Below, piece by piece: positions 30,607 to 53,342 of a stretch of 64,000 nt of DNA. The notes beneath the pieces were generated by a model. That model made no database searches and had not been told where the DNA came from. It saw nothing but the letters and a program-made list of their open reading frames with translations. This DNA comes from Escherichia phage vB_EcoS_HZ_ZJUN2. The position numbers and the translations under genes are program-made. Location: sequence record PP216084; one strand, 5' to 3'. Position 1 is the stretch's first letter, and every line of letters starts with the position of its first letter.

Positions 30607-31122
30607 ATGGCTAAGCAAAAAAACGCAAAAACTCAAGCAGCTACTACAGTTAAAACTTTCCCGCAGACTGAGGCTAACCGCAAAGCTCGTCTGGAACGCC
30701 ACCTGCGCAAGCATCCTACTGATGCTCAAGCTGCACAGGCACTGAATCGTCCGGCTCCGATTCGTCAAAAGCCGAAGGCTAAGAATGCTACTCGTTCTGT
30801 AACCCGCCTTGTGACCTATGTACAGGGTTATGGCCACAAATCTGTTCCAGTAACACTGAGTTTCAATGCTGGAGCTGAATTGTTCTCTCGTAATGGCATG
30901 GCCATGAAAGATTATGAGAAAGCAGTTAACCAGAAACGCAAGCCAACGGCAGATCTGCTTCGTGACACTCGTGGACAGTTTGGCTCTGTTAAGCCAAATA
31001 TCTTTGGCGTAGAGTATAGTAAAGATAGTGTTCGTGCTCTGTGTTACGGTGTAGGCATTAAGTTCACTGGTGATTCTGCTCGTAAATCTGCTAAACCAGC
31101 TCGTAAACGTAAAGCGAAGTAA
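30607..31122 (+). CDS. highly basic hypothetical protein (171 aa), possibly nucleic-acid binding
   Basis: ORF track; Lys/Arg-rich termini. Confidence 0.55.
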   Translation: MAKQKNAKTQAATTVKTFPQTEANRKARLERHLRKHPTDAQAAQALNRPAPIRQKPKAKNATRSVTRLVTYVQGYGHKSVPVTLSFNAGAELFSRNGMAMKDYEKAVNQKRKPTADLLRDTRGQFGSVKPNIFGVEYSKDSVRALCYGVGIKFTGDSARKSAKPARKRKAK

Positions 31123-31163
31123 TAGATAGGAGGGGCTTTCGCCCCTCATAGTTTGGAGAAACT

Positions 31164-31400
31164 ATGCGTAATTTTGTAGTAAAGAATGATTTTAACCGTG
31201 CTAGCACCCATAAGTCCGCTAGAGATTATACAAGACTTTCTAGTCATGAGGTAATGGACACCTGTTATGAAGAGCTGGAAGGTAGCTGGAATGAATGGCC
31301 CAACTTCTCTATGGAAGAAAACTGGGATGTCAGTGAGGATATGCTTCCTGGTTTTAAAGACCCCAAGAAGTGGGAGTCTATTAAAGAGACAGCTCTTTAA
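31164..31400 (+). CDS. hypothetical protein (78 aa)
   Basis: ORF track; RBS GGAGAAACT. Confidence 0.5.
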   Translation: MRNFVVKNDFNRASTHKSARDYTRLSSHEVMDTCYEELEGSWNEWPNFSMEENWDVSEDMLPGFKDPKKWESIKETAL

Positions 31401-31428
31401 TAGTTTTCTACACAATAAAGGATAAGTT

Positions 31429-32130
31429 ATGAAAGTAAAACCATTTGGTATGCTAGATATTGAATCTCTAGGAACTCCAGGAGATTGTGGTACTACTCAT
31501 ATCGTAATGCCTTCTTTCGCTTTTGTGGCTATGCATGGGATTGATAAAGACCCTGACTTAGTATTTGCTACTTTGGATGTGCAGGATCAGCTTAATTCTG
31601 GTGCCAAAGTTACAGCATCTACTCTAGCATTCTGGATGGATCAAGCTAAAAATAGCCCGTCTGCTATTCACATTATGGAAGCTATGAAGGAACGTAATCC
31701 AAAACTGATTGCCTTCCAAAATGGTAAACATCATTGCACTAATAAATTAGGCTCAAACTATGCTGCCTTCTCTATGGCTCAAAATATTATGGAGTTGGCT
31801 CTAGGCGAAAATGCTTTGTATTATGGCAATGGCCCAGAGTTTGATATGACTATCTACTCTGCAAACACGTTCCATGCTGGAACCAATGAAGAGGTAGTTC
31901 CGTGGAAATTCTGGAATTTAGGCAATGTTCGATCTCTTCGTAATCTCTGGATGCAAGCTGGTTATAGTTACAAAGATCTAGAGGCTGAAGGTATTAGCTG
32001 GGCAAAAGCTAAAATGGAGAAGATGGACACCATTCGTTATGGGATCTATCCGGTTAAGCACGACCCAGCATTCGATGCCCTAGTTGAGGGCTATTGTGTT
32101 GCAGCTATGATCGAAAAAATGAAAATTTGA
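31429..32130 (+). CDS. hypothetical protein (233 aa), possibly DEDD-type exonuclease
   Basis: ORF track; N-terminal FGMLDIESLG resembles Exo I motif (weak). Confidence 0.45.
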   Translation: MKVKPFGMLDIESLGTPGDCGTTHIVMPSFAFVAMHGIDKDPDLVFATLDVQDQLNSGAKVTASTLAFWMDQAKNSPSAIHIMEAMKERNPKLIAFQNGKHHCTNKLGSNYAAFSMAQNIMELALGENALYYGNGPEFDMTIYSANTFHAGTNEEVVPWKFWNLGNVRSLRNLWMQAGYSYKDLEAEGISWAKAKMEKMDTIRYGIYPVKHDPAFDALVEGYCVAAMIEKMKI

Positions 32131-32131
32131 T

Positions 32132-32160
32132 TTGCTTCCGGCTCCAAAATTCTGTATAAT
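32132..32160 (+). promoter_or_regulatory. sigma70-type early promoter
   Basis: -35 TTGCTT / 17 bp / -10 TATAAT. Confidence 0.55.
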
Positions 32161-32201
32161 ATATTCATAAATTTGAGAAAACAATAAAAGGAAAAACAAA
32201 T

Positions 32202-32384
32202 ATGCCAGTATCTAAAAATGTTCGTAAAAATGGTAAGAAAGCTACTCGTAATCTGGGTATCCGTCGTATGGCTGAACGTCAATCAGGTGTCCAGAAAATC
32301 TTTGATCTGCTAAATCGTGCTAACCCTAAAATTGATAACAATAACGATACTGTTCTGCGCACTCTGCTGGCAATTGGTCTGTAA
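32202..32384 (+). CDS. hypothetical protein (60 aa)
   Basis: ORF track; RBS AAAGGAAAAAC. Confidence 0.5.
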   Translation: MPVSKNVRKNGKKATRNLGIRRMAERQSGVQKIFDLLNRANPKIDNNNDTVLRTLLAIGL

Positions 32385-32437
32385 TAGACCAACTTTAAAC
32401 AAATTCAAATCTCAAACTTCATATAAGGAAGCAAATA

Positions 32438-33076
32438 ATGACTACTCGTATCTCTAAAACTCGCGCTCTGGCAACTATCAAATCTCTGGAAGCTAAAATC
32501 CGTAAAGCTACTGAACAGCAGCTTCTGATCGCTGTTGGCGAAGGTAAGGATAAAAACCAGGTTGTAGTTGGCGCTGCAATCGAAGTAGCTGATCTGTCTA
32601 CTCGTATTAAGGCAGATTTCCAATCTCTCCTGGATATGATGTCCCAGCGTGATCGTATCAAAGCCGCTCTGATTAAGAGCAATGCGGAAACAGTAGTTGA
32701 GATTGGTTCTCGTAAGATGACTGTTGCGGAAGCAATTGAAGCTAAGCGTTCTATGGAACTTAAAGCCCAACTGCTGGCTAATATGCGTAAGCAGTTCCAT
32801 GCCGCTACGGTTAAGTTTAATACGCAGAAAGCACAGTTTGATGCTAAATATGAGCGTTTGCAGGATAGCATGGCTACCCGCGATAAGAAAACTTCCGAAG
32901 ATGAAGTTAAAATGCAGCTCAACCTGCTGGAACTCAAGAATACTCCATTCTTGATTGATCCGCTGGAACTGGAAAAGCTGATTAAGCAGCATGACGAGGA
33001 ATATCAGGACTTTGCAACAAATGTTGACTTTGTTCTGTCCGAGTCTAACGCCTCTACCTTCATTGAAGTAGAGTAA
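32438..33076 (+). CDS. coiled-coil hypothetical protein (212 aa)
   Basis: ORF track; RBS AAGGAAGC; the two antisense ORFs over the same region are rejected. Confidence 0.55.
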   Translation: MTTRISKTRALATIKSLEAKIRKATEQQLLIAVGEGKDKNQVVVGAAIEVADLSTRIKADFQSLLDMMSQRDRIKAALIKSNAETVVEIGSRKMTVAEAIEAKRSMELKAQLLANMRKQFHAATVKFNTQKAQFDAKYERLQDSMATRDKKTSEDEVKMQLNLLELKNTPFLIDPLELEKLIKQHDEEYQDFATNVDFVLSESNASTFIEVE

Positions 33077-33459
33077 TAATTTAAAAGCTAGTAAATCGGT
33101 AGACGAAAGCCCAAGCATCTTACCTCGCAGCAGCGGTTGAAATACGAGGTTAAATAGGACCGCTGACCATACTATAAAGTATAATCTATTGGAGATTATG
33201 TTTATTACACCAGCCTTTTAAGCTGACACGTAAGAACAAAGCGTCGTTGATATTACCGACACAACTTCAAAGATCAACATTTAAGTATGAAAGCTGAAAA
33301 GTTTAAAGAACTCAAACTTCTAAACTTCTAAATCTAAAAGATGCAAAGTATTCGTTGATGATTCAAACCCTAGATCAAAGGTACATGGCTCATAAGATAT
33401 GGCCTGTGGCGCCTCTAGGCTGTTTATCGGTTTACTAGTTTCACAATTTAAAAATGTAT

Positions 33460-33488
33460 TTGCTAATCTACTAAATTATATGTATAAT
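33460..33488 (+). promoter_or_regulatory. sigma70-type early promoter
   Basis: -35 TTGCTA / 17 bp / -10 TATAAT. Confidence 0.55.
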
Positions 33489-33518
33489 ATATTTTTAAAT
33501 TGATGAAACGAGGCTATT

Positions 33519-34342
33519 ATGGGTAAATTACAAAAACAAATACTACCATATATAGATTATATTCGAGAAATTATAGAGTATAATCCTTATACCGGTAAAT
33601 TATTTTATAAGCCTAATAAATACAAGAATAAAACTTGGCACACCCTATATGCTGGGAGAGAGAGATATGTAGTAAGAACTCTGATGGGTATATCAGAGTT
33701 AGTTTGCTCTTAGATAACAAACCCACAATTATTTATGGACACCGAATAGCGTGGTTGCTACATTATGGTGAAGAGCCGCCTCATATGATCGACCATATAA
33801 ATACCATACCGTGGGATAACAGAATTATTAATTTAAGAGAGACAAATTTTAAGTTAAATAGAATTAATACTAATAAAACCATAGGTGTAGAACTCCTCCC
33901 AGAGGGTTTTGTATATAGCATTACATTAGATGGAAAGTTCTTCGTATCTCCTGGCTTCACCACTTTCGAACAAGCTAAAGGGGAAAGAGAAAAACTAGTA
34001 AATGGCTTATGTAACGCAGAAATTGGGAAGCAGACCAATATCCTAATAGACGATGTTAGAAATCTACCTGAAATGTCTATTATTTGTCGTACAGTTGTAT
34101 GTGCGCTAGAATTATCAGACGCGTTTAGTTTCACAGGCTCATACCTATTTATGGACTCAGATCTAGGAGATCCAGAGGTACAAGGAAAAGATTTATTAGA
34201 TCATATACTATTTTTAGGTCAAAGACCTTTAAAAGTGGTTTTAGTAACATCTAACCCCGTTGACGCAGAGTACATGAGAGGTACTCTTACATCTTATGGA
34301 TACAGAGAAAATCCCAATAGATTAGAATATGATCTATTTTAA
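33519..34342 (+). pseudogene. HNH homing endonuclease interrupted by a frameshift
   Basis: ORF 33519-33713 matches the N-terminal module of the paralogs at 4588, 54339 and 57830; ORF 33635-34342 in another frame carries the HNH core HRIAWLLHYGEEPPHMIDHINTIPWDNRIINLRETN. Confidence 0.6.
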
Positions 34343-34354
34343 GGAGTAAAAAGA

Positions 34355-34804
34355 ATGAAGGCAGCTTTGCTTTTAGTAGCTGCCCTTACCGTCAGCTTTA
34401 GTAGTCAGGCATCGCACGATGCAAAAGAAATAGATTGCATTGCTAAAAATATCTATTTCGAAAGTCGTGGTGAGGGCATAAAGGGAATGACGGCGATTGC
34501 ACATGTTACTAAAAACCGTGTAAACTCCGGTAAATTCCCAGATTCCTACTGTAAAGTAGTATATCAGTCTAACCAGTTCTCTTGGGTATCCAAGAGACCA
34601 AAAGTTGATAAAACCGATGAGGCTTGGAAAACCGCCAAGAATTTAGCTAGAGTGATATACTACGTTGATTTACCACAAGATCCTACACATGGGGCTTTAT
34701 ACTTCCATAGCGGTAAAGATAAACCTTACTGGACAAAGAAATTTAAGAAAACAACTAAGATTAAGGGGCATACATTCTATAAACCTGTTGTCACTAAAAC
34801 TTAA
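34355..34804 (+). CDS. secreted SleB-like cell-wall hydrolase (Hydrolase_2-type)
   Basis: Signal peptide MKAALLLVAALTVSFSSQA; motifs NIYFESRGEGIKGMTAIAHVTKNRV and QSNQFSWV typical of SleB-family hydrolases. Confidence 0.6.
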   Translation: MKAALLLVAALTVSFSSQASHDAKEIDCIAKNIYFESRGEGIKGMTAIAHVTKNRVNSGKFPDSYCKVVYQSNQFSWVSKRPKVDKTDEAWKTAKNLARVIYYVDLPQDPTHGALYFHSGKDKPYWTKKFKKTTKIKGHTFYKPVVTKT

Positions 34805-34811
34805 AAATTTA

Positions 34812-34840
34812 CTTGCTTAAATACTTAAATTTCCGTATAA
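34812..34840 (+). promoter_or_regulatory. sigma70-type early promoter
   Basis: -35 TTGCTT / 17 bp / -10 TATAAT. Confidence 0.55.
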
Positions 34841-34872
34841 TACTTCCATAAATTAATGAGAGGAAGCGAAAT

Positions 34873-35043
34873 ATGAAATCAGTTGTAATTATTGGTGTTA
34901 ACACTCGCGGTATTCGTACTACGAAAACTGTTAAAACTTCTAACGTTGCTGAAATCACTATGAACCCTAAAAAGTTTGATTTCGCCAAAGTCTCAGCAGT
35001 TATGACAGAACAATCTTTTAACCAAGCATTAGGAATGAAGTAA
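34873..35043 (+). CDS. small hypothetical protein (about 56 aa)
   Basis: ATG with RBS GAGAGGAAG; stop overlaps next ATG (TAATG); below ORF-track cutoff. Confidence 0.45.
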   Translation: MKSVVIIGVNTRGIRTTKTVKTSNVAEITMNPKKFDFAKVSAVMTEQSFNQALGMK

Positions 35044-35486
35044 TGGAAGAGAATATTTTAGATGTTTTGCGTAGAGCTTTGCAGGATTCTAAGTTTAATG
35101 GTTCTGATAAAGAAGTCGCTAAAAGCTATCAGACCATAATCGGGGATCTTCAGCGTATTGATAAAGATTTCATCACTTCTGAACAATTTGTGTCTTATCT
35201 CAAAGCTCAACTAAAAAGCATTAACCAGATGAAAGCTAAACTTCATGGTCAAGATCTCGATAGTTATAGCTTACAGTCTGCTCAGTATGAGTATATTCTA
35301 AATAAATGGTTGCAGGAGTATCTGCCTCCTCAGTTATCTGATACTGAGATTCGTAAATACTTTGCAGAATTAGTTAAGCTAAACCCTGGAATTACAAAGG
35401 GTATGCTGATGAAAGCGATTAAGGAAGAATTTCCTGGGCGTTATGATGGTGGTACTGCTGCTCAGATTGCTGGCGAATTTAATTAA
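35043..35486 (+). CDS. GatB/YqeY-domain protein
   Basis: C-terminal segment EIRKYFAELVKLNPGITKGMLMKAIKEEFPGRYDGGTAAQIAGE resembles YqeY domain. Confidence 0.5.
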   Translation: MEENILDVLRRALQDSKFNGSDKEVAKSYQTIIGDLQRIDKDFITSEQFVSYLKAQLKSINQMKAKLHGQDLDSYSLQSAQYEYILNKWLQEYLPPQLSDTEIRKYFAELVKLNPGITKGMLMKAIKEEFPGRYDGGTAAQIAGEFN

Positions 35487-35494
35487 AAATTTAT

Positions 35495-35523
35495 TTGCTA
35501 AATGCCTTTAAATTCTGTATAAT
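35495..35523 (+). promoter_or_regulatory. sigma70-type early promoter at head of tRNA region
   Basis: -35 TTGCTA / 17 bp / -10 TATAAT; no ORF follows. Confidence 0.55.
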
Positions 35524-35746
35524 ATATTCATAAATTAGGGAACAGCGAGCCGATTACGCTGAATGCAGAATCCCAACCGGAGCGCATTGAATAGAGTCGG
35601 TGGGTTAGTTGTAAAACTAGTACACAGGGGGCGGCAATCCCGGTTAGTGGCTAGAACGTGTAAAATGAGGCGTCTGAAACCTCTCCCCTAAACTCTTCTC
35701 TAATTTATAAATAGTGGGGTGTGGAAATCACTTATGTAGTAACACT

Positions 35747-35818
35747 GCCGATCTAGTATAAACGGTATTATCAAGCCGTAACTGGTGGAAGATGTAGGTT
35801 CGAATCCTACGATCGGTA
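35747..35818 (+). tRNA. tRNA-like element (anticodon not resolved; no encoded CCA)
   Basis: Canonical T-arm GTAGG-TTCGAAT-CCTAC and 7-bp acceptor pairing GCCGATC/GATCGGT; D and anticodon arms could not be folded cleanly by eye. Confidence 0.35.
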
Positions 35819-35857
35819 AGAACTGGATAACTGGTGCTTTTAACGTAAAAGCTTCCG

Positions 35858-35930
35858 AGGTTAGTTGCGCACTGCCTAAACCACGCGGTAGTTGGTTCCA
35901 GACTAACCAACCAGTCTGCTGAATAGTTTT
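35858..35930 (+). terminator. hairpin + T-run (terminator or processing site)
   Basis: GTTGGTT-CCAGACT-AACCAAC hairpin followed by TTTTATT. Confidence 0.3.
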
Positions 35931-36319
35931 ATTACGATTTAACTATGTCCAGGCTAAAGAAGAACTTTAGAAGGTATTCTAGGTAGTGAAGTTTTTCCTC
36001 CATATCGGAGTAGTTTTTCAAGCTACCAACAAAGTGGGAAATGCTGACATGAGAGATGTCACTAATGGTGCACAATAGCACAGGTAATTCGCGATAACTC
36101 CTGTTGAGTAGCAGCAAAAGGCGGGAAGTCATGACCCCAAGCCTAACCGAGTCCTCAATATACCGCAGGACATAACCACTAAGTCACCCTGACTTAAACT
36201 GGAAAATAATAGACGTTACTGTATTTTGTCTTGAAATACTTAATGAGTGAGACTTATGACTCTCCCGGTATCGTCTGTATTTTTAAGAGTTTTTACGAGA
36301 GTTCTTAAAAATACTTAAA

Positions 36320-36391
36320 CGGGGTGTAGTCTAAGGGAGAGGCAGGAGTCTTCTAAATTCCTTTATGCAGGTTCGAATCCTGTCACCTCGG
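36320..36391 (+). tRNA. tRNA-Arg (anticodon UCU), CCA encoded
   Basis: Manual cloverleaf: acceptor CGGGGTG/CACCTCG, D-stem GTCT/AGGC, anticodon stem GGAGT/ATTCC with loop CTTCTAA, T-arm GCAGG-TTCGAAT-CCTGT, then G-CCA. Confidence 0.6.
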
Positions 36392-36428
36392 CCAATTTTA
36401 TTAACTGTAACTAAAACAAAGGAAATAT

Positions 36429-37376
36429 ATGTTTGCTACTAAAAACACTAAAGAACTGACTTATGAGCAAAAATTGATGCGTAATATCAAACGTTGGGGT
36501 ATTGGTGTTGCAGTTGGTTTGGTAGGTTTAGTTCTGGCCCTTAACTCCTATACTGTGGTTCAAGACGGTACTGTTAAAACCCAGACTTTCCTGGGTAAAG
36601 TTGACCCTAGCCCAGTATTACCAGGCTTTCATATTGTAAATCCTTTTGCTTCTTTCGATACTTTTAGTACTAAAGATATTGCTGTAAAATTAGATAAACT
36701 TCAGGTTCCTAGCCAGGATAAGTTTAAATCCACTGTTGACCTGACTGTTATGTTGCAGTTTGATGGTTCTAAGGCACCGATCAACCGTATTAATGCAGGT
36801 ACTCAGGATCAGGCGTTAGACAAATATGTAACTGAAAAATTACTGTCTACCATCCGTGAGTTTGGTAAGTCTGTACCTAAAGCACAAGATTTGTTTGATG
36901 CTAAAATTCAAGCACAATTACAAACTGCAATTCAACAGGAAGTTGAAGAGTATGCACGCCCTTATGGTTACACAGTTAAGCAAGTGTTCCTTCAGGATAT
37001 CACATTACCACCGGTAATTATGGAACAGGTACAGAATACCAAAGTTCGTGAAGAACAAGTTAATGCTGCGAAAGCTGAATTGGCTCGTGTTGAACAAGAA
37101 GCACAGCAGAAGGTTAAACAAGCAGAAGCAGATCGTGAAGCTCGTAACAACCAAGCTATTGCAAACGAACGTGATGCAGATGCTAAACTGTATGCAGCTA
37201 AGAAAGAAGCCGAAGCTAACGCCGCTCTGCAACGTACTATTACTCCTGAGATGATTCGCTGGAAACAACTAGAAGTTGAAATGACTCGTGCTCAGAAGTA
37301 TCAAGGTGGTGTGCCGCAAACAGTAGTTGGCACTGGGTACGATGGCCGGATGATTATGGATATGCGTAACAAGTAA
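36429..37376 (+). CDS. SPFH/band-7 (prohibitin/HflK-like) membrane protein
   Basis: N-terminal TM helix (WGIGVAVGLVGLVLAL), SPFH-like core, long charged coiled-coil C-terminal region (EQEAQQKVKQAEADREARNNQAIANERDADAKLYAAKKEAEANA). Confidence 0.65.
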   Translation: MFATKNTKELTYEQKLMRNIKRWGIGVAVGLVGLVLALNSYTVVQDGTVKTQTFLGKVDPSPVLPGFHIVNPFASFDTFSTKDIAVKLDKLQVPSQDKFKSTVDLTVMLQFDGSKAPINRINAGTQDQALDKYVTEKLLSTIREFGKSVPKAQDLFDAKIQAQLQTAIQQEVEEYARPYGYTVKQVFLQDITLPPVIMEQVQNTKVREEQVNAAKAELARVEQEAQQKVKQAEADREARNNQAIANERDADAKLYAAKKEAEANAALQRTITPEMIRWKQLEVEMTRAQKYQGGVPQTVVGTGYDGRMIMDMRNK

Positions 37377-37400
37377 TTCCCACACGTAATATTCGAAGTA

Positions 37401-37440
37401 AGCCCTGTGTTCCCTGGAGAGCGCAGGGCTTTTCTGTTTT
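37401..37440 (+). terminator. rho-independent terminator
   Basis: AGCCCTG...CGCAGGGCT hairpin + TTTCTGTTTT. Confidence 0.6.
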
Positions 37441-37602
37441 AAGGTAGAGGATAAGTGTGTCTCTTTGGTCACTCAGCTATGACAAATACTTTACACTATA
37501 TCACATTGAAAATCAAGTGGGGATAACAATTTTGGGGTCTATCCACTTACCTGCTACCATTAAGCATCCTGTTATTTTCCTCTAAAAAGTTAAAAAATTC
37601 AA

Positions 37603-37631
37603 TTGCTTGAATGCTAAATTCTCTGTATAAT
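37603..37631 (+). promoter_or_regulatory. sigma70-type early promoter
   Basis: -35 TTGCTT / 17 bp / -10 TATAAT. Confidence 0.55.
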
Positions 37632-37661
37632 ATATTTATAAATTTGAGAGAGGAATCTAGT

Positions 37662-38180
37662 ATGACTGTTGATGAACTAACAGAACATCTCTTATCTAGA
37701 GGGTTTGATACAGATAAGTATCATTGCTGGTTAAGCCAGGAAGGATGGCTAACAGTCCCGTTGTATGACTTCTCTGGGATGTTGAGAGGCTATCAAACTT
37801 ATAATCCTTCTGCTCCAAAAGGTCATGGTAAGTGTCCCTTTGAAGCTAAATATTTTACTTATTCTACTACCCAGTGTGTATGGGGATTAGAAACTCTCAA
37901 TGGAGATGAAAAAGTAGTATTGATTGCTGAATCTGTATTTAAGGCAGTTGCGTTACATAACGCTGGTTATCCAGCCCTGGCAATGTTGGGTTCTTCCCCC
38001 GGAAAAGCATTATTAAAGCAATTGAAATTATTACCTTTTAAATTGGTAGCTGTAGGAGATAATGATCCTGCGGGTGAAAAATTTGCTAGAAAATTAAACG
38101 GCTTTGTTTCTCCTGTAGATGTAGATGAGATGTCTACCGAAAACTTGAAAAATTTTCTTGCTATGAAGCTAAATTTCTAA
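37662..38180 (+). CDS. TOPRIM-domain protein (about 172 aa)
   Basis: Track ORF 37611-38180 trimmed to ATG 37662 downstream of the promoter; TOPRIM-like VVLIAESVFKA...LVAVGDNDPAGEKFA. Confidence 0.55.
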   Translation: MTVDELTEHLLSRGFDTDKYHCWLSQEGWLTVPLYDFSGMLRGYQTYNPSAPKGHGKCPFEAKYFTYSTTQCVWGLETLNGDEKVVLIAESVFKAVALHNAGYPALAMLGSSPGKALLKQLKLLPFKLVAVGDNDPAGEKFARKLNGFVSPVDVDEMSTENLKNFLAMKLNF

Positions 38181-38186
38181 TATAAT
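38158..38186 (+). promoter_or_regulatory. sigma70-type promoter overlapping the 3' end of the TOPRIM gene
   Basis: -35 TTGCTA / 17 bp / -10 TATAAT; drives the two following tRNAs. Confidence 0.5.
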
Positions 38187-38200
38187 ATATTTATAAATTC

Positions 38201-38286
38201 GGAAGAATAGCATAACGGTATTGCAGCAGATTGCTAATCTGTCGGTTTGAAATATAGCCTTGTGGGTTCGATTCCCACTTCTTCCG
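38201..38286 (+). tRNA. tRNA-Ser (anticodon GCU), class II, CCA encoded
   Basis: Acceptor GGAAGAA/TTCTTCC, anticodon stem GCAGA/TCTGT with loop TTGCTAA, long variable arm, T-arm GTGGG-TTCGATT-CCCAC, G-CCA. Confidence 0.65.
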
Positions 38287-38295
38287 CCAAATTCT

Positions 38296-38370
38296 GGTTC
38301 TCAAGCTCATATGGTATGAGCACCCAGCTCATAACTGGAAGGTACGTAGGTTCGAATCCTCGGGGAGCCA
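38296..38370 (+). tRNA. tRNA with anticodon CAU (Met/fMet/Ile2 not distinguished)
   Basis: Acceptor GGTTCTC/GGGAGCC, D-arm GCTC-ATATGGTAT-GAGC, anticodon loop CTCATAA, TTCGAAT T-loop with imperfect T-stem, A-CCA. Confidence 0.5.
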
Positions 38371-38396
38371 CCAACTTAATTAGAAAGTAGTAAACT

Positions 38397-39080
38397 ATGA
38401 GAACTGATATACTCGATAGAAAGGAAGAAATAACTCAGTGGATAGCTCAGGGAAAATCTAAAGCAGAGATAGCAAGAATGCTATCTTGTGCCTCGAATAC
38501 TCTAGAAGCATATTTAGGAAAACTAGGGATAATAATTACTCCTACTAATAGGCAGCAGGATAATAAATATAAGTCTGCAACAGAGTATTTATATAATGGC
38601 AGTCCTATCTCTTCCTATAGACTAAAGAATAAAATTCTTAACGAGGGACTAAAACCACATAAATGTGAGGGTTGCGGACTAGAAAGCTGGTTAAATAAAC
38701 CAATTCCCTTAGAACTCGAGCATAAAGATGGAGACCACTATAATAATGAGTGGGACAACTTAGCCCTCCTATGCCCAAATTGTCATGCACTAACACCTAC
38801 TCATGCAGGCAAAAATATTGGCAGGTATACAGAAAGGGTGGTAAATACATGTGCTATTTGTCATTGCGAAATTAGCCCAAAGGCAACGCACTGTAAATCA
38901 TGTACCCCGAAAGAACTAACTATAAATCCAGATATTACTGCGGAGCAAATAGAGTATTGGGTATCTAAGTATTCCTGGGTTCGTGCCTCCAAAGAATTAG
39001 GATTATCTGACACGGGGTTAAGAAAAAGATATACGTCCTTAACAGGAAAAGATCCTAAAAGTATTAAGAAAAGTAGGTAG
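38397..39080 (+). CDS. HNH endonuclease (227 aa)
   Basis: HNH motif CEGCGLESWLNKPIPLELEHKDGDHYNNEWDNLALLCPNCH; C-terminal tail paralogous to ORF 41268-41849. Confidence 0.7.
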   Translation: MRTDILDRKEEITQWIAQGKSKAEIARMLSCASNTLEAYLGKLGIIITPTNRQQDNKYKSATEYLYNGSPISSYRLKNKILNEGLKPHKCEGCGLESWLNKPIPLELEHKDGDHYNNEWDNLALLCPNCHALTPTHAGKNIGRYTERVVNTCAICHCEISPKATHCKSCTPKELTINPDITAEQIEYWVSKYSWVRASKELGLSDTGLRKRYTSLTGKDPKSIKKSR

Positions 39081-39566: not shown

Positions 39567-39842
39567 ATGCAAAATCGTGTTATAGCAACTGGTATTGAAA
39601 GTGCAATCTGTAAATCCTGGGAAGGCTGGGAAGGTGAGATTGAATGGCTTTATTTCTACGATGTAGAACTTCTGCCGGAAATTAAAGCTAAATGTGTTGA
39701 AGCTGGCATGGCTCCAGATGCAAAAGCTGATATTGATATTTCAATGTCTGAACTTAAAGGTCGTGTAATTACTGTTAGTGATGGGGGCGAAGAAGTTTTC
39801 GAACTTCCATTCTCCTTAACTGTCGCTCCTAAGTTCGACTAA
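39567..39842 (+). CDS. hypothetical protein (91 aa)
   Basis: ORF track; RBS GAAGGAG. Confidence 0.5.
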   Translation: MQNRVIATGIESAICKSWEGWEGEIEWLYFYDVELLPEIKAKCVEAGMAPDAKADIDISMSELKGRVITVSDGGEEVFELPFSLTVAPKFD

Positions 39843-39878
39843 CTAATACAGCACTGAGCAAGTTCTTTAAAATTTGAC

Positions 39879-39907
39879 TTGCTCAGTGCCTTAAAACTTG
39901 GTATAAT
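39879..39907 (+). promoter_or_regulatory. sigma70-type promoter embedded in an inverted repeat
   Basis: -35 TTGCTC / 17 bp / -10 TATAAT; the -35 lies in the 3' arm of hairpin GCACTGAGCAAG...CTTGCTCAGTGC (39851-39890). Confidence 0.5.
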
Positions 39908-40041
39908 AGTTATCTAATTTGGAAAGTTCTTTTTAAGGTAGTTCTTACTTTAGCAGAGTAAACTTTCGGCAGATGGCGGCAGCCACTTTACCGATATTCC
40001 ATAGTCAGTGCCGCAAACACTGGCTACCTTAAAGAGAATTT

Positions 40042-40126
40042 GGGCGTTTATTCCGTAAGTGGTAGCGGAGGGGAATGTAAATCCCTGGTCATTGCGACTC
40101 GAGTGGTTCGACTCCATTAACGCCCA
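40042..40126 (+). tRNA. tRNA-Tyr (anticodon GUA), class II, CCA encoded
   Basis: Acceptor GGGCGTT/AACGCCC, anticodon stem GGGGA/TCCCT with loop ATGTAAA, long variable arm, T-arm GTGG-TTCGACT-CCAT, A-CCA. Confidence 0.6.
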
Positions 40127-40137
40127 CCAAATTTAAT

Positions 40138-40209
40138 GCACCTATCGTCTAATGGTTAGGACATCAGGATTTCAATCTGAGAATCGGAGTTCAATTCTCC
40201 GTGGGTGTA
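40138..40209 (+). tRNA. tRNA-Glu (anticodon UUC), CCA encoded
   Basis: Anticodon stem TCAGG/TCTGA with loop ATTTCAA, T-arm CGGAG-TTCAATT-CTCCG, acceptor GCACCTA/TGGGTGT. Confidence 0.55.
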
Positions 40210-40220
40210 CCAATTTCTGC

Positions 40221-40294
40221 ATTCCTAGAGTGTTACTGGACAGCATGTCGGTCTCCAAAACCGTACGGTCTAGGTTCGAGTCCTAGTAGGTTTG
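40221..40294 (+). tRNA. tRNA-Trp (anticodon CCA), tentative
   Basis: D-stem TGTT/AGCA, anticodon loop CTCCAAA, T-arm CTAGG-TTCGAGT-CCTAG, G-CCA; acceptor stem has two mismatches. Confidence 0.45.
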
Positions 40295-40303
40295 CCAAAA
40301 TTT

Positions 40304-40375
40304 GCACCTTTAGCTGAGATGGATTAGCGCTTGCCTGAAGAGCTTGAAAGGTTGGATCGTTACCAACGGGGTGCA
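40304..40375 (+). tRNA. tRNA (anticodon uncertain, possibly CUG)
   Basis: Acceptor GCACCTT/GGGGTGC with A-CCA, T-stem GTTGG/CCAAC with unusual T-loop ATCGTTA. Confidence 0.4.
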
Positions 40376-40395
40376 CCAAATTGAAGGAGCTGCTG

Positions 40396-40668
40396 ATGCA
40401 TCCTGAAAACTTCTTTATTTACTGCGCGGATAAGTCGCTGAAACGTAGAATTAACAAAGTCTATCATTATCGTGCTAGTCAACAGCCTTATGTATACGCT
40501 TTTGACGGTGATCACATTCCACTAGAACAATTATCTTGTGATTACATGATATTGAAGAACTTTGACGAGACGAAGATCTCAAGCGTTTATAATCGACAGA
40601 ATCCATTAACGTGGAAATATAAGAAGAAAAAGAAAGGCATCAAATTCTTAAAAAATATAGTTGCTTAG
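40396..40668 (+). CDS. hypothetical protein (about 90 aa)
   Basis: Track ORF 40381-40668; likely start ATG 40396 after RBS GAAGGAG. Confidence 0.45.
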   Translation: MHPENFFIYCADKSLKRRINKVYHYRASQQPYVYAFDGDHIPLEQLSCDYMILKNFDETKISSVYNRQNPLTWKYKKKKKGIKFLKNIVA

Positions 40669-51517: not shown

Positions 51518-52102
51518 ATGACTAATAAAAAAGAAGAAAAGACTAACCTGTTTCACTCCATTCGCCAATCTAATGAGTATACCTTTTTCTTTGATGAAGA
51601 ATTAGGCCCGCCGGATGAATACCGTGATTTATCAATGGTACTTATGCAGGCAAATGAGGACGACGAAATTAATCTGATGATTAATGGTCCGGGTGGTTAT
51701 GTTGATACTGCTGCACAGTTATCTAACTTAATTGCTAATTGCCGTGGAACAGTTATAGGACATCTGGTTGGTCCTAGTGCTTCTGCTTACTGCACAATTT
51801 TCCTATCCTGCCATGGATGGGTAGTACATCCACATGCTACGCTAATGGGGCACACGTTCTCTGGCGGATTCTGTGAGAAGGGTCAAGAAATCAAGAAAGC
51901 CTATGAATCTTACAACAAGTTCGTAGAAGATATGATGCTAGATGTCTACTATCCGTTCTTCTCTATAGACGAAATCGACGAGATGGTAAAAGACAACAAA
52001 AATATCTATCTAGATAGCAAAGAAATCCATAAGCGTATTGAAATCTTGGCAAAATATCGATCTGAGCAATGTAATAAAGCCCAGTTATCTCAATCAGAGT
52101 AG
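51518..52102 (+). CDS. ClpP-like serine protease (S14 family) homolog
   Basis: ClpP-like core LMINGPGGYVDTAAQLSNLI...VIGHLVGPSASAYCTIFLSCHG...HPHATLMGH. Confidence 0.55.
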   Translation: MTNKKEEKTNLFHSIRQSNEYTFFFDEELGPPDEYRDLSMVLMQANEDDEINLMINGPGGYVDTAAQLSNLIANCRGTVIGHLVGPSASAYCTIFLSCHGWVVHPHATLMGHTFSGGFCEKGQEIKKAYESYNKFVEDMMLDVYYPFFSIDEIDEMVKDNKNIYLDSKEIHKRIEILAKYRSEQCNKAQLSQSE

Positions 52103-52275: not shown

Positions 52276-52932
52276 TTGGAAAAGTTCTTACAACTATTAA
52301 CGGTACTGCTCCAAGAAGCGAAAGATCCAGCATCGCTTCTTAAACGTCTGCTAACTATCTTAGTTGCTGTCATTATTTTCTTATTTGTTAGTAATACTAG
52401 TGAGGTGATGTCATTCTTAAAGACTTTTTCCACGTCTGCGGTTCTACAGGATGTTCAAACTCAAAGGATAGATAACTTTCCTAATGTAGCTAGAGAAAAG
52501 AGCATGGTGCTTTTCTCCCAAACGGGTGCGGATGCTGTTTTTGTCGTCAAGTATAAACCCGATGCTATCAATGATTATTCCAATATTATTGCATGGGAAA
52601 GTGATGCGCAATTAGATAGGGCTGACTTGGCTGATAAAGCGGTAAATAAAACGTCTGAATTATACAGACGTCACTTGGAAGGCTTTAACTACGCATCGGA
52701 TTTAAGTGTAAAAGTAAATAAATACATGGGGTTAAATATACCTGCGTTTAAGAACGTTACCTTTAATTACATATACACTTGTCCGTATTTCAATCTAAAC
52801 AATATCTATGCTGGATATATTGGTATTGCTTGGAAAGATAATCCTGTAGATGCAGCCGATTCTGAGAAATTTAACGAGTACTTAACAAAGCTCTGTTCCC
52901 CACAACAGAGATCTTTAGGTAGATCAATATGA
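52276..52932 (+). CDS. putative holin (membrane protein immediately upstream of and coupled to endolysin)
   Basis: 218 aa, N-terminal TM segment LLTILVAVIIFLFV; stop overlaps endolysin start (ATGA). Confidence 0.5.
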   Translation: MEKFLQLLTVLLQEAKDPASLLKRLLTILVAVIIFLFVSNTSEVMSFLKTFSTSAVLQDVQTQRIDNFPNVAREKSMVLFSQTGADAVFVVKYKPDAINDYSNIIAWESDAQLDRADLADKAVNKTSELYRRHLEGFNYASDLSVKVNKYMGLNIPAFKNVTFNYIYTCPYFNLNNIYAGYIGIAWKDNPVDAADSEKFNEYLTKLCSPQQRSLGRSI

Positions 52933-53342
52933 GTTTTAAATTTAGTCAAAGAAGTTTAGATAGATTAAAAGGTGTTCACCCCGACTTAGTAAAAGTAACA
53001 CATAGGGCTTTAGAATTAAGCCCCTATGATTTTACTATTACAGAAGGACTTCGTTCCCTAGAACAAAGTGCTAAGAACATTGCTAATGGTACATCTTTCT
53101 TAAAAGATCCTAGCAAATCTAAGCATGTTCAAGGTAGGGCGGTAGATTTTGCTCCGCTTAAGGATGGAAAGATTGACTGGAATGATCTAGAATCCTTTAA
53201 GTTAGTGGCAGATGCCTTCTTTAAGGCAGCGGAAGAGCTAGGAGTAAAGATTAGATGGGGTGGTGATTGGAACCAGAATGGAAGTTATAAGGATGAAATC
53301 CAACGTGGTACTTTTGATGGCCCACATATAGAATTGATTTAA
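52929..53342 (+). CDS. endolysin, L-alanyl-D-glutamate peptidase (M15-type), 137 aa
   Basis: Zn-ligand context HVQGRAVDFAP...DW...IRWGGDW; size matches the T5 endolysin. Confidence 0.8.
   Translation: MSFKFSQRSLDRLKGVHPDLVKVTHRALELSPYDFTITEGLRSLEQSAKNIANGTSFLKDPSKSKHVQGRAVDFAPLKDGKIDWNDLESFKLVADAFFKAAEELGVKIRWGGDWNQNGSYKDEIQRGTFDGPHIELI

Follow-up and report, generated by a model that had tools for sequence, protein, structure and literature searches.

What does a virulent bacteriophage do with a protein of the SPFH class (stomatin/prohibitin/flotillin/HflKC, band 7), and where did it get the gene? SPFH cages such as HflK/C, prohibitin, stomatin, flotillin and erlin have been resolved structurally only recently, and their physiological roles are debated. 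The question is raised by Escherichia phage vB_EcoS_HZ_ZJUN2 (sequence record PP216084), of which a stretch of 64,000 nucleotides, here called the window, was analysed. The source phage is T5-like (Demerecviridae): the DNA of the region is 92–96% identical to that of T5-like phages, with Escherichia phage HildyBeyeler as the best match, so the first-pass annotation, which saw the bare letters, was right to call the gene phage-encoded. The gene is already known at the annotation level. Its product is 94% identical in amino-acid sequence to T5.080 of phage T5 (NC_005859), which is ORF075 of record AY587007 (proteins YP_006908.1 and AAX12012.1); that 2005 record carries the label "putative transmembrane protein, IPR001107: band 7 protein", and RB43 ORF139c, 44RR ORF098c and Aeh1 ORF064c were listed in 2006 as Pfam SPFH/Band 7 matches (PMC1524935). 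The RefSeq record of T5 labels the protein "lipoprotein", in an entry whose note cites Aeh1 ORF064c and 44RR ORF098c, the PHROG family phrog_200 gives the SPFH family the same label, and an older T5 annotation reads 'membrane protease'. Across the open-access literature and bioRxiv we found annotation-level mentions only, and no functional study of T5.080 or any phage SPFH ortholog. Here, we add a corrected label, a predicted periplasmic orientation, the quantisation of a long helix in 11-residue steps, sister clades in cellular genomes, a contrast of high retention with dispensability, and the location of the gene at the edge of an anti-defence island.

The gene and its transcription unit

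The coding sequence runs from 36429 to 37376 on the + strand, exactly the 315-aa open reading frame that had been claimed and that appears in the ORF listing. It starts with an ATG, 5 nt downstream of a ribosome-binding site read from the sequence (AAGGA, 36419..36423, + strand). Compared with T5 and DT57C, the gene has a dN/dS of 0.08–0.10 and is therefore a real coding gene under purifying selection rather than a chance open reading frame. The ATG lies 34 nt 3' of tRNA-Arg(UCU) (36320..36394, + strand), which was called by ARAGORN and scores 49 bits with the Rfam tRNA model, in an arrangement shared with T5 and DT57C. Upstream of this tRNA is a non-coding leader (35530..36319, + strand) that, judged by its position relative to the T5 and DT57C annotation, is their 'RNAX', a stable RNA of uncharacterised function. 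The leader contains a tRNA-like element at about 35746..35819 (+ strand; 'tRNA-Ser(act)' in ARAGORN, 39 bits in Rfam tRNA), ~600 nt upstream of tRNA-Arg, and a pseudo-tRNA is annotated at the equivalent spot in AY587007. Among the 21 tRNAs predicted for the window, this element and tRNA-Arg come first, which agrees with the earlier description of the gene as lying right after the first tRNAs.

A sigma-70 promoter, TTGCTA-17-TATAAT (35495..35523, + strand; 10/12 matches in the promoter scan), precedes the leader. It is the ortholog of the T5 early promoter P16-17 and aligns base for base with the P16-17 region of T5. The terminator scan found no + strand terminator between the P16-17-type promoter and the SPFH gene, and the unit is hence composed of promoter, RNAX-like leader, tRNA-Arg, SPFH gene and terminator. 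From this layout, transcription of the SPFH gene is likely to begin at this promoter, and the gene is likely to be the last one of a predicted co-transcript, with the 5' end of its mRNA presumably made by tRNA processing. At the other end, a Rho-independent terminator (37400..37441, + strand) has a 13-bp stem, a 6-nt loop and a U-run. Its hairpin, at 37400..37431, has a dG of -22.9 kcal/mol (z = -4.4), and 0 of 200 shuffles fold as well, so that the strong terminator read from the letters is borne out by folding. The hairpin is identical to that of T5, where the same position is annotated as a terminator in the records; T5.080 thus has the same position after tRNA-Arg, the same promoter and the same terminator as the gene described here. 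According to the AY587007 feature and the T5 alignment, GCGCAGGG (37421..37428, no strand assigned) is the counterpart of the T5 'major single-stranded nick 3 (32.6%)' site, and this nick-3-type site sits within the terminator hairpin.

Fold, membrane anchor and long helix

The gene encodes a genuine SPFH protein. Pfam Band_7 (PF01145) matches residues 52–225 with 63 bits (E=4.8e-17; gathering score 23.6) and spans profile positions 13–176 of 176. The AlphaFold2 model (monomer run, 21 homologs, mean pLDDT 79, pTM 0.47, C-terminus below pLDDT 50) consists of a TM helix (residues 12–38), an alpha/beta core (41–192), a 76-residue helix (195–270) and a second helix (273–290). Pfam Band_7, AlphaFold2 and Foldseek together place the SPFH core at residues ~41–192 (36549..37004, + strand); it contains a VPSQDK motif (residues 93–98) that is invariant in the homolog alignment, and 66 columns of the alignment are invariant across phage families. 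Against the PDB, Foldseek returned matches at probability 1.0 to erlin1/2 (9e-15), PHB (3e-13), HflK/C (5e-12), stomatin (1e-11) and QmcA (1e-10), with flotillin and the major vault protein ranking next, and the matches to cage subunits are full-length (about 270–305 columns). The rmsd to isolated stomatin SPFH domains is 2.6–4.7 A, and that to full cage subunits is large because the angle of the long helix differs in the monomer model. The first-pass annotation had proposed an SPFH-like core, to be given up if profile and structure searches brought no SPFH-fold match; both searches matched SPFH, and the claim stands. Its wording 'prohibitin-like' is acceptable at the level of the fold, where erlin and PHB rank highest in Foldseek, but not at the level of a curated subfamily: among the NCBIfam family models, which include HflK, HflC and prohibitin, 0 families were found at E<=0.1. 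The PADLOC defence-system protein models also gave 0 families at E<=0.1, and therefore neither a curated subfamily nor a defence family is assignable.

The fold also bears on the database labels, which are all that speaks for taking the protein as a lipoprotein (RefSeq, PHROG phrog_200) or a 'membrane protease' (older T5 annotation). The protein contains zero Cys, a lipobox is present in 0 of 119 phage-type homologs, and 113 of these 119 have no Cys at all; hence, the 'lipoprotein' label is wrong. SPFH proteins are partners of proteases and not proteases themselves, and the SPFH fold has no protease active site; 'membrane protease' is thus unsupported by the fold and was rejected. We give either label practically no chance of being correct, and the widespread 'lipoprotein' of PHROG 200 and RefSeq should become SPFH/band 7 membrane protein.

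The single N-terminal TM helix expected from the letters was recovered as one hydrophobic segment at residues ~23–41 (36495..36551, + strand; mean hydropathy 1.9), modelled within helix 12–38 by AlphaFold2 and classed as a signal-anchor by hydropathy and charge count; no second hydrophobic segment is present in the protein. The N-terminal flank of the segment has six K/R versus two D/E (net +4), and the 15 residues after it have a net charge of ~0. The same bias towards a more positive N-flank is seen in all 119 phage-type homologs and in all 12 from Morganellaceae. By the positive-inside rule, which is statistical, this predicts an N-in/C-out signal-anchor with the SPFH domain facing the periplasm. 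The prediction agrees with the structural ranking, which is headed by SPFH classes that face the exoplasm (erlin, prohibitin and HflK/C): in E. coli HflK/C, and in prohibitin and erlin of eukaryotes, the SPFH domain is on the non-cytoplasmic side.

Behind the core, AlphaFold2 models long Ala/Glu/Lys/Gln-rich helices at residues 195–270 and 273–290 (37011..37298, + strand), putatively the cage wall and cap helices. In residues 196–290, A/E/K/Q/R/D make up 59 of 95 positions, in line with the long charged tail described earlier. The C-terminal segment (residues 291–315; 37299..37373, + strand) has a conserved G-VP-TVVG motif and a pLDDT below 50, and may serve as a cap or a strand. Measured from one conserved anchor motif to another, the long helix has 53, 64, 75 or 86 residues in 1, 106, 22 and 1 of 130 homologs, respectively, and its length differs solely by steps of 11 residues, equal to three helical turns. 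Such a quantisation is expected if the wall is periodic and each helix must remain in register with those next to it, and it is an indirect pointer to an oligomeric ring or cage.

Among solved structures, the nearest sequences are QmcA, prohibitin-1/2 and HflC. HflK/HflC resembles the phage protein in its single N-terminal TM helix, its long wall helices and a full-length Foldseek match (E 5e-12), and also in the N-in/C-out orientation with a periplasmic SPFH domain, which for the phage protein is a prediction from charge bias. However, HflK and HflC are paralogs that form an obligate pair, whereas the phage has one gene, flanked by tRNA-Arg and a Toprim gene, and the identity is 16–19% (alignment profile versus HflC in the PDB, E 5e-3). 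By structure, PHB1/PHB2 and erlin1/2 come closest (E 9e-15 to 1e-12). They, too, are type II membrane proteins of similar size, but they are hetero-oligomers of two paralogs in organelles; their identity is 15–20%, and orthology is not implied. PHB2 is the top match over the SPFH core (E 8e-5), and QmcA of the E. coli QmcA-YbbJ pair scores higher overall, as the best solved-structure sequence match (E 3e-7), mostly via the repetitive Ala/Glu-rich helix. QmcA is a homo-oligomeric cage encoded next to an NfeD gene, in contrast to the phage protein, which has no NfeD neighbour, and QmcA reportedly faces the cytoplasm, the opposite of the orientation predicted for the phage protein. The SPFH proteins of Morganella/Providencia and of methylotrophs match over the full length and have the same architecture, 11-residue helix modules and single genes; they are cellular proteins in a housekeeping context with host-like GC.

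Distribution, retention and neighbourhood

Matches to the SPFH protein are present in 739 phage records (tblastn), those of T5-like phages among them. Identities are 80–84% in the T4-like Slopekvirus and Pseudotevenvirus, ~75% in the 7-11-like Grimontviridae, ~63% in Aeromonas T4-like phages and 23–43% in Vibrio phages, with the T4-like orthologs overall at 34–83%. By neighbour-joining, the T5-like, T4-like and 7-11-like sequences and those from ~150-kb enterobacterial phage contigs form one clade with 100% bootstrap support, and a single mixed clade of this kind indicates that the gene moved between unrelated virulent phage families. BFVD contains SPFH folds from giant viruses and from many further phages.

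Among bacteria, scanned with one genome for each species, chromosomal copies of 55–60% identity were found in many Providencia and Morganella genomes and copies of 33–41% identity in methylotrophic and other Gammaproteobacteria, Desulfocapsaceae and one Myxococcota genome. These relatives are in housekeeping neighbourhoods, for example trpF-trpB-trpA-accD-folC-SPFH on a Methylophagaceae chromosome, and no prophage genes, NfeD or second SPFH gene were found beside them in the neighbourhoods examined. Their GC is that of the host locus, and the Morganella and Providencia copies differ with a pN of 0.07 and a saturated pS. The phage clade belongs to this cellular family of stand-alone SPFH proteins, with 35–59% bootstrap on the neighbour-joining backbone between phages and Morganellaceae. 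No E. coli or Salmonella copy was found in the one-genome-per-species scan, and the phage hence appears to bring an SPFH subtype that its host lacks.

Using megablast, the gene was found in 267 Salmonella and 128 Escherichia phage records versus 270 and 130 for the T5-type DNA polymerase, corresponding to a retention of about 99% in enteric T5-like records. In BF23, a classical relative of T5 with good growth on K-12, ORF071-075 are absent (PMC10644984); its hegA is followed directly by the T5.081 ortholog, and tblastn found no trace of the SPFH gene in that 30-kb BF23 region. In phage NG_S8 only a remnant is left (residues 274–315). Against the ~99% retention, the absence from BF23 and the remnant in NG_S8 mark an accessory gene, which is dispensable for laboratory plaques yet strongly favoured in nature. 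The same two phages could be taken to mean that the gene is a decaying or selfish passenger, functionless in the phage, as could its frame-disrupted look in phage 7-11 (gp124 + gp123) and the altered C-terminus in RB43. This reading is contradicted by the selection data and is very improbable, given the low dN/dS, the intact reading frame, the presence in ~99% of enteric T5-like records, the 66 invariant columns across phage families, and the conservation of promoter, ribosome-binding site and terminator alike.

The next gene downstream (37611..38180) encodes a Toprim domain and is orthologous to T5.076/ORF071, whose product Rad inhibits retron defence (bioRxiv 10.1101/2023.03.15.532788; PMC10644984). 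Experiments have defined the tRNA region of T5 as an anti-defence island, in which Rad, tRNA-Tyr and ORF71/72 are directed against retrons and tRNA-Lys against PARIS. The SPFH gene is on the border of this island and, in the window, adjoins rad. In T5, three extra opposite-strand genes (T5.077-079) lie between the SPFH gene and rad, whereas the window is without them. BF23 lost rad and the SPFH gene in a single deletion, described by the authors as loss of an anti-defence locus (PMC10644984). The commonly used laboratory deletion (T5Mos 30661-38625) stops before the SPFH gene at 39712-40659 (AY587007). The T4-like phages have other arrangements: Slopekvirus and Pseudotevenvirus have the gene order tk - x - rI (the lysis-inhibition regulator) - x - SPFH, and in Tulanevirus the SPFH gene adjoins tk, with a lysis-inhibition gene about 3 kb off. 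No lysis genes are near the SPFH gene in the Aeh1 and Vibrio phage (S4-7) contexts, and in T5-like phages it is about 15 kb from the holin/endolysin/spanin cassette.

The 64-kb window has one SPFH gene, no NfeD or SPFH paralog was found adjacent to the gene in T5-type phages, and no PHROG family is common to the immediate neighbours in KP27, phiAS4, Aeh1, Vibrio S4-7 and 7-11; we infer that the SPFH protein acts without a phage partner gene. A ClpP-fold gene at 51518..52102 was weighed as a possible NfeD-like partner and dismissed: its match to NfeD1b_N stays below threshold (19 bits versus 40), and it has no TM helix or signal, which would put its product in the cytoplasm, whereas a periplasmic location is predicted for the SPFH domain. 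It also belongs to the lysis cluster, ~14 kb from the SPFH gene, and is kept in BF23 without that gene.

Candidate roles in the infected cell

Taken as a whole, we find it reasonably probable that this ortholog of T5.080 is an early-transcribed accessory gene for host takeover, whose product forms a periplasm-facing cage in the inner membrane. Expressed early from the P16-17-type promoter, the protein would insert into the host inner membrane by its one signal-anchor, with the N-terminus in the cytoplasm and with the SPFH core and long helices on the periplasmic side. There it could assemble into a homo-oligomeric ring or cage with the long helices as walls, fencing off a patch of the inner membrane. 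Such a cage might, as in HflK/C, select the inner-membrane proteins that gain access to a membrane protease such as FtsH, or might otherwise stabilise the membrane proteome of the infected cell. Control of protease access or stabilisation of the membrane proteome is the role that we would tentatively put forward as the most likely one, and a ranking by analogy would have protease access and quality control first, counter-defence next and lysis timing or exclusion third. Given that no HflK, HflC or prohibitin model matches and that identity to HflK/C is 16–19%, the connection to FtsH rests on analogy with other SPFH cages, and the surrounding genes hint at defence evasion (T5) or lysis control (T4-like) no less than at proteolysis. 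The first-pass annotation had named host membrane proteolysis by FtsH-type proteases, superinfection exclusion and lysis timing as conceivable roles, all of which are speculative.

Defence evasion would mean that the protein is anti-defence cargo that shields the inner membrane from membrane-acting abortive-infection effectors or defence sensors, or sequesters them. The gene borders the experimentally defined island, the gene directly downstream is the Rad ortholog, and BF23 lost rad and the SPFH gene together; being dispensable in the laboratory, ~99% retained and horizontally shared among unrelated virulent phages is, moreover, the typical profile of a counter-defence gene. However, this is guilt by association: the T5Mos deletion that defines the island does not reach the gene, T4-like phages hold it in a different neighbourhood, PADLOC models give no match, and the housekeeping contexts of the close Morganella/Providencia relatives suggest a general membrane function. 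We regard the anti-defence reading as doubtful. Lysis control or superinfection exclusion, by a cage that modulates holin/antiholin or blocks the DNA entry of a second phage, would fit the closeness to rI in Slopekvirus and Pseudotevenvirus and to a lysis-inhibition gene (~3 kb) in Tulanevirus. It would also fit the predicted periplasmic orientation, since this is where rI, holin domains and incoming DNA act, and early expression suits exclusion functions. The T4 region is, however, a plastic insertion zone, and proximity to lysis genes is therefore weak evidence; Aeh1 and Vibrio phages have no lysis genes nearby, the T5-like gene is ~15 kb from its lysis cassette, and no neighbour family is common to the phage backgrounds. 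A role in lysis timing or exclusion is thus unlikely in our judgement.

Control of protease access or stabilisation of the membrane proteome remains the preferred role. The broader proposal, to which we assign a rather low probability, is that an early, periplasm-facing SPFH cage serves as a membrane counter-defence or host-takeover device, for example by corralling FtsH or an abortive-infection effector. As counter-defence, the cage would keep the inner membrane intact and energised until programmed lysis. If true, the virus-encoded SPFH proteins that recur in phages and giant viruses would have their first assigned function, and the cage would be a new anti-defence mechanism that acts by compartmentalising the membrane rather than by enzymatic or stoichiometric inhibition. 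Should the gene turn out to belong to the T5 anti-defence island, phage counter-defence would gain a mechanism at the level of the membrane. A single-gene, non-essential and putatively homo-oligomeric SPFH protein in a tractable E. coli phage also offers a simple system for the study of cage function.

RNAX-like leader and tRNA genes

Upstream of the SPFH gene, the region at approximately 35530..36319 (+) corresponds to the T5/DT57C region encoding 'RNAX', a functionally uncharacterised stable RNA whose transcription starts at the early promoter P16-17. Sharp divergence between the window and T5 begins just downstream of this promoter. Within the RNAX-like region, ARAGORN calls an odd 'tRNA-Ser(act)' at 35747..35818 (+), which also matches the Rfam tRNA model at 39 bits, and the T5 record AY587007 marks a pseudo-tRNA at the same site. 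A further tRNA at 38296..38370 (+) is found by Rfam (38 bits, above the gathering score), although it is missing from the ARAGORN list for the window. It lies directly after tRNA-Ser(GCU), in the same place as tRNA-Ile2(CAU) of T5.

Other genes of the window

The 235-aa product of 33635..34342 (+) has domain matches to an HNH_3 endonuclease and to cREC_REC, a cyclic-phosphate processing receiver domain, and this combination is unusual in a homing-endonuclease-like gene. The gene is an insertion upstream of an early-region SleB-type cell-wall hydrolase gene (34355..34804, +; Pfam Hydrolase_2), whose product has an apparent signal peptide and which is distinct from the lysis-cassette endolysin gene at 52929..53342. 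A ClpP-fold protein (CLP_protease, 34 bits) is encoded at 51518..52102 (+), between dNMP kinase and holin genes. We set it aside as a partner of the SPFH protein, given that its NfeD1b_N match is weak and sub-threshold and that the protein has no TM helix.

SPFH homologs in other records

T4-like versions of the SPFH gene, with 78–81% identity, are found in two 'bacterial' records, Flagellimonas marina NZ_JBHSCL010000010.1 (178,077 bp) and a 'Klebsiella pneumoniae plasmid' (174 kb). Both contigs match Pseudotevenvirus or Slopekvirus genomes in size and are probably phage genomes submitted as bacterial contigs or plasmids. Providencia and Morganella chromosomes (L008-L020) carry stand-alone homologs with 55–60% identity and host-like GC, in housekeeping surroundings that differ between the two genera; their helix has one 11-residue module more than that of the T5-type protein. 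In Salmonella phage 7-11 the SPFH gene is annotated as two ORFs, gp124 and gp123, with the N-terminal TM part in a different frame from the remainder, and in RB43 ORF139c the final ~20 residues are divergent. Either natural disruptions or sequencing errors could account for these two cases.

Rad ortholog, terminator and nick site

The Toprim-domain protein encoded at 37611..38180 (+; 189 aa) is the ortholog of T5.076/ORF071, which recent work has named Rad, an anti-retron protein (bioRxiv 10.1101/2023.03.15.532788; PMC10644984). The protein is labelled 'DNA primase' in many records. T5 has three opposite-strand genes, T5.077-079, between the two; owing to their absence from the window, the Rad ortholog here comes straight after the SPFH terminator. 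The terminator hairpin (37400..37431) has the same sequence as the T5 hairpin and contains GCGCAGGG at 37421..37428, for which AY587007 gives the label 'major single-stranded nick 3 (32.6%)', so that a genome nick site and a transcription terminator coincide.
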